Shown here in pieces: positions 34,494-38,883 of a stretch of DNA of 64,000 bases. The notes below the pieces were generated by a model. It did no database searches. It was not told the origin of the DNA and saw only the letters and a list, made by a program, of their open reading frames with translations. Position 1 is the stretch's first letter. Each line of letters starts with the position of its first letter. The DNA is from Spirochaetia bacterium (GTDB taxonomy: Bacteria > Spirochaetota > Spirochaetia > SZUA-6 > Bin103), in contig CBDBOV010000006.1 of NCBI GenBank assembly GCA_965208575.1, positions 32,001 to 96,000 of the forward strand, read 5' to 3'. The position numbers were made by a program, and so were the translations under genes.

Positions 34494-34654
34494 TCGGCTG
34501 TCCTTAGTTCAGGGTAGCTGTCCGGTTCTCATCACCTGGGGCAGCTACCCTGTTTTTCTGGTCAGTTTACCTCGACTCTCCCGTCCTCCACTCCAGTCGA
34601 TCGTGAGACGTCCGCCCCCATTCCGCTCAGATCAATCTGAGAGCCGACACACGG

Positions 34655-35127
34655 CTCCGCGCTGGGCGTAGAAGTCCTGCCACCGGTAGCTGGACCGCGC
34701 CACCGGCGTGAACACGCGCCGATCCTCGGCCAGCGGGATGCGTACCGCGTCGCTCACCGGGCACCGATCCATGCCTTTGCAGGTGATCCCCAAGTAGCGC
34801 GCCCGGACAGCGATACCCCGGCATCTCGCGATCCTGCTCGAAGCCGCCGTAGGCCATGCTGTGCAGCTCACCGGTCTGCGGGCACATACAGATACTTGGC
34901 CGTCGTGGGTATAGATCACGTTCTCCTGACCGTTCACCAGCTTGGTGAGGACGCCATCCCGTTCCGCCTCTCCGTCCTTCCAGCAGTTGCGAATCGCGAT
35001 GATCGGCTTGATCTGATGCTGTTGCCACAACCGATTGATCAGCTTGTGGGCGTCGTAGCCCTTGTCGGCGCTCATGCGATCGCACCGCTGCAGCAGTTCG
35101 GGATGACGCTACTGCATCTGAGCAAGG
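34655..35127 (-). pseudogene. DDE transposase relic, middle piece
   Basis: RHPELLQRCDRMSADKGYD...IKPIIAIRNCW...RVFTPVARSSYRW; frameshifts and a stop. Confidence 0.8.
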
Positions 35128-35171
35128 GGACTCCTCACCATTTGTCAAGGGCGAATTTCGGTCGCTGGAGC

Positions 35172-35769
35172 ATGAGGGCAGGTGCCTGGTGCGGAAGGAC
35201 TGGGAAGTGCACGCATCAGGCTCCCGGCGGAAGTTGAAGGCGGCAATTCTGAATAGTTCAGCAGAGAAAGCCCGGAAGGTGTGCTGTTCAGGCAGGATGA
35301 TCCTGGAATGCCAAGGACCGGACCTATAACCGTCGGATGGCGGGAAGTGGAGCGGAGAGCAGCACACTGGCGGATGAGGCCGCCAAGCGAGGATGGCCGC
35401 GACAACATAACGCGGCTGGAGCGAGGGCCTCAGGGCTCAGGAGGAGCCAGTGGTAGTGCGTCGCCCGGACACTGAGCCGGGGAAACGGCGACACGGTGAC
35501 CGCTGACTCGAAGCGACGGTCAAACCGGGGGCAGCACCCGCGTAGCCGGGGATCAGGCTGAGCGTGGATGCTGTCGCATCGGGAAGGGCCGCCGCGAGCT
35601 TGCGGGCGCCTGAGCTTCGAGCCGGACCGTGGGAAAACCCGATGTCCGGAATCCTAGGGGCGCGCTGGAAACGTGGCCTATGGTGGAACTGTGAACCCAC
35701 CTCGCTTATCGAAAGGGCGGGGCTGGAAACCCTCCGCCTACGGGTGCGCGCGCCAGCGCTCTACCCGAC
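35172..35769 (+). ncRNA. ORF-less group II intron, probably 5'-truncated
   Basis: Domain V GAGCCGGACCGTGGGAAAACCCGATGTCCGGAATC (35619-35653); long domain VI ending CTACCCGAC (35769); DII/DIII-like motifs CCTATAACCG, GACAACATAAC...GGAGCGAGGGCC; no RT ORF. Confidence 0.85.
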
Positions 35770-35822
35770 GGGGTGTCGTGACGCTGTGGATAAGTGGATA
35801 AGTCGGCGGCGTCGCGGGGAGG

Positions 35823-36026
35823 TCAGTAGCCAGATGGACGGCGCCGACGCTTGGGTGCGGGGCCGAGAACCGCGGGCAGAGCGGCCTCGATATCGGCGAC
35901 CTTGGTGATTTCTTCCTCGATCAGGCGAATCACCTCCGCGCGGATCGTCACTCCGCGGGTGGCACACAGCAGCTTGAAGCGGCGATGAAGCGAGTCGGGG
36001 AGATCGCGTACGTAGAGAGTTGCCAT
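35823..36026 (-). CDS. Ribbon-helix-helix DNA-binding protein (Arc/ParG/FitA-like)
   Basis: MATLYVRDLPDSLHRRFKLLCATRGVTIRAEVIRLIEE; AT-rich upstream patch with TAGC-N3-GCTA palindrome. Confidence 0.75.
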   Translation of the reverse strand: MATLYVRDLPDSLHRRFKLLCATRGVTIRAEVIRLIEEEITKVADIEAALPAVLGPAPKRRRRPSGY

Positions 36027-36495
36027 AGTAGCTTTGCTAACATTAATAACATAGATTGCGCAACGAACCGCCCGCGCGCTGTCCCACGGCCAGTTTCGCG
36101 TAACTCGCCAGCAGACCAAACCGATGCGATCCTGCGAGACCTCTCAGTCAGGCCGCCATGCGGTGACCGGTGGCAGGCTTCCGCTTTCGAAGCCCGACGC
36201 TCCGGGTGTCTCCCGTCGCCGGTCGTCTTCGTGGCTGCTCAGGCTGCAGCGCAGCCGCGTGCTCGTCGTCCCACGGCGCCGGCGCCCGGCGTTCACCGTC
36301 CACCGGAGTCGTCATCGACCGCAAAATTGGCCGTCTGCGCGCCGGTCGCCGTCCAAGCCGGCCTCTGACGCCCTCAGGACCGTCCGGGTACCCCAGGCAA
36401 CCCTCCGGAACCACCGCCGACGCCGTCTCCCGACCGCCGGCCGGCTCACGCTGGCCTCCACGCCACCCCTGTTACGTCCGCCCCACGCGCCTCGA

Positions 36496-37740
36496 TCAGG
36501 CGGCCGGCGTGCGTCCAACCCGGTGCTCGGGATCGTACGGCGTTCGATCTCGCAGCATCGCGCACGCCACCCTCAGCAGCCGCTCCGAGACCGTTCGCAG
36601 GGCGTGGCCATGGCGTTTGCCCCGCCCGCGCAGCTCGCCATACCGCTCCCGACTCGCCGCATCGTGCTGGATCGCCACCCGCGCCCAATGATACATCGCG
36701 TCGCGCAACCGCTTGTTGCACGCACGTCGCATTATCACCACGCGGGTCTTCCCCGACCGCCGGGTCACCGGCGCCACTCCGGTCAGGATGCGCAACGTGT
36801 GATAGTCTCGGGCTGCCAGGGCCTGTGTGGCCTCTGCGAGCAGCGTGGCGAGCACGATCCGACCGATTCCGGGCATGGACAGGAGGATGGAGGCGTCACG
36901 CTGCTCTTCTGTTTCTGCCGAGTCGTCGTTGCCCACCATCTCGGCGATCAGTTCGTCCAGTCGAGCGTGCGCCTGGTCGATCAACTGGTTCACCGGCCTC
37001 AGCCGGGTGATGAGACTCTCGATGTGCGCCTTCGCCGCGACCGTCGTCCCGCGGCTCACCTGCAGCGGCTGCTGCCGCAGGATGTGCAGCACCCCGGCGG
37101 CATCGAGGCGCCGGATGCGGTTTCTCTTCAGGATCGCCGCGATCGACGCCTTGCGGATGCGCGCCGCCTCCGCCGGCGTCGGCGCCTTCTCCCACAGCTC
37201 CAGGAACCAGGCGGCTCCGAGATCTCCGCCCAACTCCAGCATCTGCGGGTAGTAGCGCCGCAGTTGCTCGCGCCGGCGATTGATCAGCCGGTTGCGGTCC
37301 TGCTTCAACTCCTCCCTCATGCGCGACCATTCCCGCAACTCGATCACCTCCGGCTCCTCCACCTGCAGATGGCGAAAACTGCGCCGGTCGGTGCGTAGCG
37401 AGTCCGCCAACACCCGCGCGTCGCGCCGGTCGTCCTTGGCCCCGGCCGCCGTAAACCGGTCCCGAAATCGATCCAGCTGCTTGGGATTGATCGCGTACAC
37501 CTGCACCTCGCGCTCCAGCAGCATCTCCACCACCGCTCCATGCGGCATTTCGATCGCCGCGTGCACGCTCGCCAGGTGCCCGCCGGACAACTCGTCCAAC
37601 CACCTGCACAGGTCGGCGATGCCGGCGCCGCTGTGCGCCACCTCGCGCTCCCCGACTACCTTGCCGTCTCCTGCCAGCACACACACCTGGTGCTGTTCGG
37701 TCGCCCAATCCACTCCCACGAACCACTGTTCGGTTGACAT
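36496..37740 (-). CDS. IS110-family DEDD recombinase/transposase
   Basis: VGVDWA, AIEMP, KDDRRDA, PGIGRI, APVTRRSGK. Confidence 0.95.
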   Translation of the reverse strand: MSTEQWFVGVDWATEQHQVCVLAGDGKVVGEREVAHSGAGIADLCRWLDELSGGHLASVHAAIEMPHGAVVEMLLEREVQVYAINPKQLDRFRDRFTAAGAKDDRRDARVLADSLRTDRRSFRHLQVEEPEVIELREWSRMREELKQDRNRLINRRREQLRRYYPQMLELGGDLGAAWFLELWEKAPTPAEAARIRKASIAAILKRNRIRRLDAAGVLHILRQQPLQVSRGTTVAAKAHIESLITRLRPVNQLIDQAHARLDELIAEMVGNDDSAETEEQRDASILLSMPGIGRIVLATLLAEATQALAARDYHTLRILTGVAPVTRRSGKTRVVIMRRACNKRLRDAMYHWARVAIQHDAASRERYGELRGRGKRHGHALRTVSERLLRVACAMLRDRTPYDPEHRVGRTPAA

Positions 37741-37769
37741 CCCGTCACCCCCGAGTTTGTGTAGCTCGG

Positions 37770-38000
37770 CTGCCACGATGTCGTTTCCGCCGCTGTACTG
37801 GTGCTCCCGGGCTCCGCCGCTCCTGGCGCCTTCGCTCCTTGGCACGACTCCTCACTGGGTATCCATCGCGGCTCTCCTGCCGGGGCACACGTCCCCCCCC
37901 CAGGTGCTCTCTGGCGCTCGGGGGGCCAAGGTGCTCCGGGCAGGTTGCCTTGCCCGTCAGGGATTCTAGCAGTCCCTCACGAACTATCGAACTATCTACT
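37770..38000 (-). ncRNA. Putative IS110 bridge RNA in the left end
   Basis: Segments match target flank (37920-37928 = 38015-38023), right end (37846-37855 = 35129-35138) and left end (37793-37798 is the reverse complement of 38010-38015); RNA ends approximate. Confidence 0.8.
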
Positions 38001-38016
38001 TTCTAAAGGGTACAGG

Positions 38017-38270
38017 GGGGCCACTGTGCCCGTTGTTACTCACCGGTCGACGCCCTGGTGACCTCGAATGACAGCCGCAACTCGTAGGTGGCGTCCACGA
38101 CCAGATGCGACAGGTAGCCGAACCAGTAGCGCTTCTTCTCGCCGAAGCCATTGACGCCCCAATCGGAATCCCGGTCGCCGCGCCCGTCGGTATCTTCGGT
38201 GGTTCTATCCTTGGGCAGCGGATAGTTGCTCCCACCCTTGGCCAGGGAGTGCAGCTCAGCGGGAAGTCAC
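38017..38270 (-). pseudogene. DDE transposase relic, upstream piece
   Basis: DGRGDRDSDWGV...KRYWFGYLSHLVVDATYELRLSFEVTRAS. Confidence 0.75.
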
Positions 38271-38289
38271 GCCGCAGCGCGGCGCTGCC

Positions 38290-38883
38290 GTTGCCGCAGG
38301 AGACCGGGGAGACAACCTCAAGGACGACTATACATCCTGCGAGCGCGACCGCGCACCGCCTGCTCGATGGTGTTTCCGCGATTCCGTGCTCCGCACGGCT
38401 GCCTGTCCGCCTCCGCGGTCAGCGCAATTGTCGTGCGCCGAGCCATGAAGCGGGCTGGGATCGACGGCCAGGGCCTCCCGGCCGCCTACGTGTTCCGTCA
38501 CTCGAGAGCCACTCATCTGCTGCACGGCGGACCTGCACCGGAGGCCGTTGGCGCCCTCCTGCGTCACCAGCGGGTGGAGACGACCGCACCCTCCGCGTGG
38601 ATGCTCCCATGCTGCTCGCTGTGCCACAGCATTGGCCGGGGAACCCCGACGACGCTGGCCGACCATGTTCTGACCCATGCCGCGGTCAAGCGCGTCACCG
38701 GCCTGGGCTTCCCGGAACAAGGAGCGGCTTCTGGCCAGCTTCGCCCGGGACGCCGAAGCACAAGGCGAGCGATGCGTGCGCGATGAGACCTGTCTCGACT
38801 GGCGGCGCAGTCCGCGTCACCGCATGAAAAACAACAGCGGCTACACCTTGTGCCGGCTGGCCGCCTACTTGCAAGCTGACTAA
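38290..38883 (+). pseudogene. Degraded tandem tyrosine recombinase genes (RIT-like relic)
   Basis: VFPRFRAPH...VRRAMKRAGI...VFRHSRATHLL...LLRHQRVETT followed by LADHV...KRVTGLGF, the start of a second integrase; several frameshifts. Confidence 0.65.

Follow-up and report, generated by a model that had tools for sequence, protein, structure and literature searches.

The stretch of DNA analysed here (64,000 nucleotides, called the window) very probably carries a single IS110-group insertion sequence of about 2,885 bp, composed of a bridge-RNA left end, a recombinase gene, cargo and a right end, which would recombine at a CC core under the direction of its guides. What is established at the level of sequence is the identity of the gene, the position of the ends, the architecture of the RNA, the covariation of guides with flanks and the conservation of the promoter (Table 1). 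It is well supported that the element is a new example of the known IS110/bridge-RNA system and not a new kind of system.

Table 1. Coordinates of the element and its parts in the window.
Feature	Position	Strand	Remarks
Element proper	35130..38014	minus	2,885 bp, TGTAC (left end) to GAGGAGT (right end), one CC core per junction
Left target and core (TGG then six C)	38015..38023	minus	Inside the interrupted IS5-like pseudogene
Core and right target (CCCC then TTGCT)	35121..35129	minus	IS5-like pseudogene resumes here
Non-coding left end, putatively encoding the bridge RNA	37741..38014	minus	274 nt, TGTAC (38014) to ATG (37740)
TACCCT, putative -10 half of the junction promoter	38007..38012	minus	Direct reading
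Target-binding loop module	37876..37944	minus	Outer stem 37944-37932/37887-37876; inner hairpin 37917-37914/37907-37904
Left target guide, UGG then six C (TGGCCCCCC)	37920..37928	minus	In other families this position agrees with the left flank
Right target guide, nine G	37893..37901	minus	Same position predicts the right flank in other families
AC after right target guide, candidate handshake guide	37891..37892	minus	Complementary to the GT ending the right end
Donor-binding loop module	37772..37872	minus	Outer stem 37872-37865/37779-37772
Left donor guide GUGAGGAGU	37847..37855	minus	Same letters as 35138-35130, the final 9 nt of the right end
Right donor guide GUACAG + C	37792..37798	minus	C at 37792 private to the window copy
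Recombinase gene, 414 aa	36496..37740	minus	PF01548 + PF02371
Cargo between recombinase and right end	35195..36495	minus	About 1.3 kb
Small ribbon-helix-helix (RHH) ORF, 67 aa	35823..36026	minus	PF22513 FitA-like RHH, inside cargo
584-bp piece of a separate multi-copy repeat	35188..35771	minus	Nested in cargo
Right end, 65 nt	35130..35194	minus	-35 hexamer TTGACA at 35148-35143; kept in G001 and G003

Judged from its domains, the gene is a DEDD recombinase of the IS110 family. The N-terminal DEDD (RuvC-like) domain matched the full PF01548 profile (E=3.1e-36, residues 8-165) and the C-terminal Tnp domain matched PF02371 (E=1.1e-16). The best match with a solved structure was the ISCro4 transposase (PDB 9t56). 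Both domains aligned and their D, E, D..D and S-G motifs coincided, although similarity between the transposase chains compared was low (46 bits). GVD, IEM and KDDRRD of the recombinase line up with GID, MEA and KTDAVD of ISCro4, and its R-R-S-G stretch aligns with E-S-G, the conserved serine being present. The role of this Tnp serine is known from S241 of IS621, and the D, E, D and D residues of the recombinase would be catalytic by analogy with D11/E60/D102/D105 of IS621, an analogy made without direct alignment to the IS621 numbering (excerpts of PMC11208158).

The element splits an IS5-like transposase pseudogene (DUF772 and DDE_Tnp_1) whose uninterrupted relatives read straight across the site, and its ends are therefore placed about 2,885 bp apart. 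The placement is based on the continuity of the interrupted gene against these relatives and on the ends kept in the G001 and G003 copies. Elsewhere in the locus, the donor-guide 9-mer recurs just once, at the far end (35138). An earlier note, made from the letters of the window alone, had put the true ends 2.9 kb apart, and this held: the interrupted gene resumes only at 35129, and the right ends of relatives are also distant. The same note had named homologous copies ending elsewhere as a sign against its reading. DNA similarity to the copies of 10 relatives does stop at query 1557-1754, about 20 nt past the recombinase stop. However, this does not refute the 2.9-kb ends, because the right ends of relatives lie 2.9 kb (G001), 3.9 kb (G003) and 6.5 kb (G005) from their left ends. 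We consider it highly unlikely that the mobile unit is only the 1.55 kb shared with relatives (38020 to about 36475) and that the 1.3 kb further downstream adjoins it as unrelated DNA. Such a unit would suit the loss of similarity just past the stop codon and the compactness of the distant families (1,566-1,876 bp), but no right-end-like sequence follows the stop codon, both the donor-guide 9-mer and the host gene reappear only at the far end, the relatives' right ends are equally remote, and IS110 elements that bear cargo and have an extended 3' region are reportedly common (excerpts of 10.64898/2026.08.14.744561).

Relatives are insertions into poly-C tracts that likewise carry cargo, in which tandem duplication was seen. 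The RHH ORF in the window cargo matched PF22513 with E=1.3e-6 (28.7 bits against a cut-off of 27), and two partial copies of it are present in the G001 cargo. A Pfam search of the five other cargo ORFs and of the C-terminal piece of the pseudogene gave no match. The 584-bp repeat was found without any IS110, at 89-92% identity, in G005, G018 and G020-G023, and it is missing in one contig of run X6, where 35187 is joined to 35772.

The junction C-runs of the window copy (6 and 4 C) are compatible with a CC core; because of the run, the exact crossover point is hidden and the length of the original target is ambiguous. Given a CC-only donor, the original target would have contained eight C, which exceeds by 4 nt the 6-nt stretch that each of the four kinds of uninterrupted relative has at this place. 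At the G005 locus a right end, six C and a left end stand in series, which implies that donors with more C may exist. A true empty site was sought and none was found, the uninterrupted copies in G000, G003, G004 and G007 being only 75-93% alike with six other letters at the site. Contig joints from 35126 to 38039 or 38043 were considered as an empty allele and rejected, since the 21-25 other letters there mark paralogues. A GT or a CT core at the junctions of the window copy was dropped because the targets implied are 8-13 nt longer than the site in relatives. The CC core is fixed by the L033/L039 family, which has a non-homopolymer target: an unoccupied look-alike site adjoining L039 shows that the donor must read right end, CC, left end.

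The earlier note had reported four guide-like strings in the leader, and direct reading of the minus strand found each where it had been placed. In an alignment of 23 leaders from the family of the window copy and from distant families (alignment A3), the target-loop stems occupy columns 6-18/65-77 (outer) and 34-37/45-48 (inner hairpin), and the donor-loop outer stem occupies columns 81-88/177-184. Changes on both sides were observed in 9 of the 12 pairs of the target-loop outer stem and in 6 of the 8 pairs of the donor-loop outer stem. Over the 24 named pairs, 94% of the cells were paired and 16 pairs changed on both sides; none of 500 shuffles equalled this, and slid controls gave 34-52%. 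The four segments lie in two internal loops with covarying stems, in the order left target, right target, left donor and right donor guide, as in an IS621-type bridge RNA and as the note had proposed (target loop, then donor loop). An Rfam scan of 34500-38600 (E<=1) returned no bridge-RNA family and only two chance microRNA matches. Contigs of the RNA-library run X19 cover parts of the element and are 90-95% alike; they may stem from relatives or from DNA.

The nonamer TGGCCCCCC is present in the leader (37928-37920) and outside the left end (38023-38015), with 9/9 identity on the minus strand. Only its TGG is site-specific, because six of the nine letters are a C-run common to all relatives; TGG also precedes the six C of L096, an independent insertion of a 98%-identical copy with a different flank. 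The left target guide matched the left flank at 8/8 positions in the window copy (9/9 counting the U), as well as in L033, L103 and L109 (8/8 each). Against their own flanks, left target guides scored a mean of 6.35/8 (4.68 ± 0.23 permuted; 0/20,000 permutations; n=23) and right target guides a mean of 7.0/8 (4.84 ± 0.42 permuted; 2/20,000 permutations; n=11), figures that are rough because related elements are non-independent and many have a poly-C target in common. The proposed covariation of guide segments with flanks was thus recovered, for the target guides across families by permutation and for the left donor guide with the right end (see below). The right flank was predicted from the right-guide position in L103, L107, L109, L033/34/39, L035 and L040, and the flank agreed in L103 (7/8), L107 (7/8, CT core), L109 (8/8) and L035 (6 nt).

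The window copy departs from this pattern on the right side. Of the pairing claimed between its G9 and the CCCCTT right flank (35129-35121), four Watson-Crick pairs stand and two G-T wobbles are possible; mismatches follow. With 4 consecutive C matched and 5/8 overall, its right target scored lowest of 11 elements, the others reaching 7-8. The right target guide has seven G in most relatives and nine in the window copy, and a 2-nt length variant of the G-run occurs in other samples. The left target guide of the window lineage is 1 nt closer to the 5' stem than in other families. In the AC that follows the right target guide, A is present in 23/23 and C in 20/23 leaders of A3; this dinucleotide is a candidate handshake guide, a role suggested by the handshake guides of IS621 (excerpts of PMC11208158).

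It is barely credible that the guide-like matches are by-products of low-complexity C/G runs and chance, and that the leader is no more than a 5' untranslated region. It is true that homopolymer makes up six letters of the nonamer TGGCCCCCC and the whole of G9, and that the single-sequence fold of the leader, of ordinary stability (z = -1.35), pairs the C-run with the G-run. Guide segments falling in paired stems had been listed beforehand as a sign against bridge-RNA guides. The single-sequence fold is misleading alone, and this pairing is not kept where the target is non-homopolymer. Against the chance reading, the first-loop guides of six elements with non-homopolymer targets (L033, L034, L103, L105, L107 and L109) match their own flanks at the same positions, and the stems flanking the loops covary. 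In addition, in 200,000 first-order Markov imitations of the 269-nt leader, the far-end 10-mer was matched in 0.056%, the 9-mer in 0.6%, the 6-mer in 7.2%, and the 9-mer and 10-mer together in 0.001%.

In the second loop, GTGAGGAGTC (37855-37846) is repeated 10/10 on the minus strand at 35138-35129; in homologues its first 9 nt are kept and the 10th varies (C/A/T). The left donor guide covaries with the right end in three families (window, L033 group and L035 group), a match that is partly by construction because right ends were found by a donor-guide 9-mer search. One such 9-mer match, 1.7 kb into L048, was without a -35 hexamer and was treated as chance. GTACAG (37798-37793) is the reverse complement of C plus TGTAC (38015-38010). 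The right donor guide is GUACAGG in 20/23 leaders, GUACAAG in 2/23 (CT core) and GUACAGC in the window copy only, which matches at 6/7 positions; its mismatch is at the core-pairing position (37792, G-to-C; G in 22/22 other leaders). The core letters of this guide track the core, GG with CC and AG with CT (L107, L110). Three of the four guides cover the CC. The left donor guide does not, and is followed in the place of the core by variable letters (beginning with C, A or T; CC in L103 alone).

Joining the ends across CC would place TTGACA (35148-35143) 17 nt from TACCCT (38012-38007). A TACCNT-like hexamer was found at the same place in 30/30 left ends parsed, and a TTGNNN hexamer 13 nt from the end in 16/19 right ends read. 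The CC core and the circle-junction promoter (TTGACA, 17 nt, TACCCT) suggested by the earlier note are conserved in homologues and are thereby supported, from the DNA letters only. No right-end-to-left-end joint (circle or tandem) was found among the contigs of four runs, and contigs drop rare forms.

Transcription, circle formation and chemistry of the window element we infer from the analogy with IS621. The excised circle would have the right end joined to the left end across the CC core, as described for IS621 (excerpts of PMC11208160 and PMC11208158), and this junction would create the promoter for transcription of the bridge RNA. The RNA would expose the UGG plus six C guide and the G-run guide in loop 1, and the GUGAGGAGU and GUACAG... 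guides in loop 2. In the recombinase-RNA complex, one loop would bind the circle junction and the other a C-run target, with strand exchange at CC. The lineage would normally home to poly-C tracts, and the window copy probably landed in a C-run of the IS5-like pseudogene, where the left half-site is perfect and the right one poor.

It is quite conceivable, although we lean the other way, that this same element is now a dead or nearly dead copy: a half-matched off-target insertion, left as a single fossil after donor recognition was lost through 37792. The 6.5-Mb genome has no other full copy, despite 54 other C/G runs of at least 8 nt; the right-target score of the window copy is the lowest of the 11, and the core change in its right donor guide is unique. 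In IS621, right donor/guide mismatches are generally poorly tolerated (excerpts of PMC11208160), and half-matched insertions have been described (excerpts of 10.64898/2026.08.31.748434). By contrast, the recombinase frame is intact and differs from the 97.7%-identical G006 copy mostly by synonymous codons (18 synonymous, 10 non-synonymous), and the remaining guide and stem positions are all kept. The mismatch could be tolerable or an artefact of assembly, and a single copy may just reflect recent arrival.

Read as an IS110-group element with its own bridge RNA, the window element has much in common with IS621 of E. coli as covered by excerpts of PMC11208160 and PMC11208158: a DEDD RuvC-like plus Tnp recombinase, an RNA encoded in the left end upstream of the gene with the target loop preceding the donor loop, the same core dinucleotide in target and donor, and a -35 in the right end with a -10 in the left end. 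Nevertheless, the recombinase is distant from that of IS621 (E about 1e-8 to 8wt6, mainly in the Tnp domain) and longer (414 vs. 326 aa). The core is CC instead of CT, the right target guide is 7-9 nt vs. 4-7 nt in IS621, and the left donor guide ends before the core, which in IS621 is covered by all four guides. The target guides are complementary to each other, unlike those of IS621, because the target is a homopolymer. The window element also bears about 1.3 kb of cargo. With the 'expanded' IS110 elements (excerpts of 10.64898/2026.08.14.744561) it shares a size above 2 kb, an extended 3' region, cargo between recombinase and right end, half-matched boundaries and, in the cargo of relatives, tandem duplication; in contrast to them, its small cargo is for the most part non-coding (an RHH ORF plus a repeat fragment), without resistance or plasmid genes.

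The four bridge-RNA guides could be read correctly from raw sequence. The element is a worked example from nature in which the core is CC, the right target guides are long (7-9 nt) and the target is a homopolymer; natural variation of this sort helps in establishing the cores, guide lengths and loop registers that bridge recombinases accept. Both its half-matched site and its cargo fit recent preprints, on flexible recognition and on IS110 element growth respectively. The element by itself opens no new question. A literature search for homopolymer-targeting IS110 elements gave no relevant paper among the titles listed; the guide-target tables of PMC11208160 (thousands of pairs) may hold poly-C examples.

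A more far-reaching reading, which we regard as a long shot, is that the lineage is specialised for hypervariable poly-C tracts in conserved intergenic contexts, where insertion and excision would read and reset tract length and switch neighbouring operons. A homopolymer target makes the two target guides mutually complementary and would let recombination slip in register. If this were so, the unequal junction C-runs and the right-end/six-C/left-end junction of G005 would be footprints of slipping. Many of the tracts lie 250-450 nt ahead of SBP_bac_5 transporter operons, which form a large paralogous family in these sponge-metagenome-associated bacteria.

Finally, the compact relatives (L033/L038, L034/L039, L103, L107, L109 and L035/L040), whose recombinases are 44-63% identical to that of the window, have in common with the window element the TGTACC left end, the -35 offset and the loop layout. 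They differ in their length of 1,566-1,876 bp and in their lack of cargo; the core is CT in two of them, and several insert at targets other than homopolymers.

The four guide segments that the earlier note had read in the leader of this IS110 element were found exactly where it placed them on the minus strand. Among 200,000 imitation leaders from a first-order Markov model, the 9-mer of segment 1 arose in 0.6%, the 10-mer of segment 3 in 0.056%, the 6-mer of segment 4 in 7.2%, and the 9-mer and 10-mer together in 0.001%. The recombinase aligned to the transposases of ISCro4 and IS621, whose structures are solved, and the D, E, D..D and S-G motifs fell in register (residue roles assigned from PMC11208158). 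Its frame is open in this copy, as had been claimed, and differed from the copy in genome G006 by 18 synonymous and 10 non-synonymous codons. The observation is real and its interpretation right in all structural respects; that the window copy is active is unproven and open to some doubt. Earlier publications already cover bridge RNAs, junction promoters, half-matched sites and cargo-bearing IS110 elements, and this element therefore exemplifies a known system and is of modest interest.

Features of the IS110 element and its surroundings (window coordinates)
Feature	Position	Strand	Details
Segment 1, left target guide	37928-37920	-	TGGCCCCCC; again at 38023-38015
Segment 2, right target guide	37901-37893	-	run of nine G
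Segment 3, left donor guide	37855-37846	-	GTGAGGAGTC; again at 35138-35129
Segment 4, right donor guide	37798-37793	-	GTACAG; opposite C+TGTAC at 38015-38010
Recombinase ORF	37740-36496	-	414 aa; DEDD_Tnp_IS110 E=3e-36, Transposase_20 E=1e-16
Putative junction promoter, right-end part	35148-35143	-	TTGACA
Putative junction promoter, left-end part	38012-38007	-	TACCCT
Internal promoter-like site	37963-37990	-	TCGATA, 16 nt, TAGAAT; TG precedes -10
FitA-like ribbon-helix-helix ORF	35823-36026	-	67 aa; cargo
584-bp repeat piece	35771-35188	-	multi-copy without any IS110 in other genomes
Interrupted IS5-like element	34500-35128, 38015-38700

Relatives were gathered at 20 loci on genome contigs and 16 loci on metagenome contigs, and leaders were parsed at 30 of the 32 loci tried. 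The left-end finder passed over L085, L035 and L040, the last two of which were read by eye. The leader alignment comprised 23 leaders; L048, L082, L083, L086, L038 and L099 were left out because they were near-duplicates or carried insertions, and the near-twin of L098 was retained. Of the 32 pairs returned by RNAalifold, 18 had compensatory changes. A three-helix structure was 94% paired, with changes on both sides at 16 of 24 pairs; this level was attained in none of 500 shuffles, and slid controls gave 34-52%. Segments 1 and 2 form the 5' and 3' sides of an internal loop between the first two helices, and segments 3 and 4 sit within the third helix, in agreement with the layout described for the IS621 bridge RNA of E. 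coli. The G-run of segment 2 has nine G in the window and G003 and seven in G001, G004, G005 and G006; contigs of sequencing runs X5 and X6 omit 2 nt of the window's run. The dinucleotide AC following this run (A in 23/23 leaders, C in 20/23) is the complement of the right end's final GT and occupies the place of IS621's handshake guide, which makes it a possible handshake guide.

The guides also changed with the flanks and ends. The 8 nt homologous to the left target guide matched the 8 nt before TGTAC at all positions in the compact relatives L033/L038, L103 and L109, and at 7/8 in L034/L039, L105 and L107. The own-flank mean was 6.35/8 (n = 23), compared to 4.68 ± 0.23 with flanks permuted (0/20,000), and for the right target guide it was 7.0 (n = 11) compared to 4.84 ± 0.42 (2/20,000), in a sample whose kin are non-independent and where many elements have a poly-C target in common. 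The reverse complement of the right target guide matched the letters after the right end at 8/8 in L109, 7/8 in L103 and L107 and 7-8/8 in the L033 group, and predicted the 6 nt after the right end in L035 and L040. These right ends were located by searching for the donor-guide 9-mer; they are independently supported, because a -35 hexamer adjoins each match and the predicted flank follows. The left donor guide and the right end changed together in three families. The right donor guide carries GG opposite the CC core in 20/23 leaders and AG in L107 and L110, the two elements with a CT core in their flanks. An unoccupied look-alike site beside L039, in the L033/L039 family, gives a donor of right end, CC, left end, in support of the proposed CC core.

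The window's is the only full copy in the 6.5-Mb genome. It splits an IS5-like gene (DUF772 and DDE_Tnp_1) that, read directly, was already a pseudogene with in-frame TAA and TAG. Uninterrupted relatives in the window's genome (G000), G003, G004 and G007 are continuous across the site, and therefore everything between the two C-runs is a 2,885-bp insertion; neither a true empty allele nor a circle joint or an RNA end was found in contigs of the sequencing runs. Nucleotide similarity of the window element to copies in five same-genus genomes begins within the left C-run and ends ~20 nt past the stop codon. The 1.55-kb element suggested by this limit alone was disfavoured, since the donor-guide 9-mer recurs only at 35138. 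This far 9-mer, the split gene and a common right end with TTGACA in other genomes (2.9, 3.9 and 6.5 kb from the left end in G001, G003 and one G005 copy, respectively) bear out ends 2.9 kb apart. The interrupted IS5-like element has at least nine further family members in G000, to which its left part is 75-87% and its right part 92-93% alike; because of this difference, the pseudogene may be a mosaic.

Of 19 right ends read by eye, 16 have a TTGNNN hexamer 13 nt from the end and the other three have it at 12 nt, and the spacer across the window's CC junction would therefore be 17 nt. This near-constant offset supports the junction promoter at the level of sequence. At the internal promoter-like site, the CTGCTAGAATCCC block was invariant in seven aligned leaders of the window's family; the site could drive the bridge RNA from an integrated copy, with a start immediately ahead of the stem of the target loop. 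At L090 (G001:C1, near 1593746-1593812), a solitary right end minus its last T is followed by CCC, the left end's first five letters and unrelated DNA with a ribosome-binding site and ATG. Its -35/-10 spacing is still 17 nt, so it may be what is left of a promoter and now feed a host gene.

This copy has its own peculiarities. The left half-site is perfect (8/8, or 9/9 counting U), and L096, an independent insertion of a 98%-identical copy, also has TGG and six C. The right half-site is poor and scored lowest of 11 elements: of the proposed pairing between the G-run and the right flank, CCCC paired and was followed by TTGC, against eight or nine G. This fits the 'half-match' insertions of IS621 described in 10.64898/2026.08.31.748434. 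The right donor guide has C at 37792, compared to G in all 22 other aligned leaders, and the left target guide is shifted by 1 nt towards the 5' stem relative to other families. The two junction runs total ten C, so that a CC donor implies a target of eight C, 4 nt over the six letters at the site in every uninterrupted relative. A junction of right end, six C and left end occurs in G005, and a donor with more C of this kind would remove the excess.

Distant IS110 families are compact (1,566-1,876 bp). The G005 copies have 2-3 kb of other downstream DNA in common and, together with right ends at 2.9, 3.9 and 6.5 kb, indicate that the window's lineage carries variable cargo; a 2026 preprint (10.64898/2026.08.14.744561) describes IS110 elements that bear cargo and have extended 3' regions. 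No toxin-like partner of the FitA-like ORF was found in the window element's cargo. G007, G019 and G022 contain similar DNA (77-81%), and the G001 cargo contains two partial copies. The 584-bp piece, which had no Pfam or Rfam match, forms the 5' portion of a longer repeat (89-92% identity) that occurs without IS110 in G005, G018 and G020-G023 and runs on there into conserved sequence missing from the window. A contig of run X6 has the element minus exactly this piece. In G005, cargo 3' of the recombinase at L081 and L085 is 96-99% alike over 2-3 kb and includes tandem units of ~350 nt and a 2.1-kb duplication. At L082/L066 (G005:C4, near 277362), six C alone separate a right end with TTGACA from a left end, and the 584-bp repeat's tail lies ~330 nt further upstream; this is either a tandem arrangement or an insertion beside a resident right end.

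In the window's family, the left C-run measured 5-7 nt at 11 of 13 junctions, and right C-runs were 4 (window), 7, 8 and 11. Contexts of G000 poly-C tracts were matched by 7/12 other left flanks and 2/3 other right flanks, and therefore the lineage homes to poly-C tracts; the window copy, whose own flanks matched no such context, is the exception. G000 holds 55 C or G runs of at least 8 nt (longest 55 nt), one being the leader's G-run; others, for example those at C4:509488, C4:525131, C4:537711 and C6:815773, lie outside the window. The very long runs could be assembly artefacts. About half of the runs (29/55, by a crude motif filter) lie in one conserved context, and 13 of 17 other sites share with a reference site at least 1.1 kb of a gene starting 250-450 nt downstream. 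This gene, inspected at a single locus, encodes there an SBP_bac_5 solute-binding protein (E=1e-64), and a permease-like ORF comes after it; homopolymers of variable length in front of a family of paralogous transporters may constitute a distinct feature.
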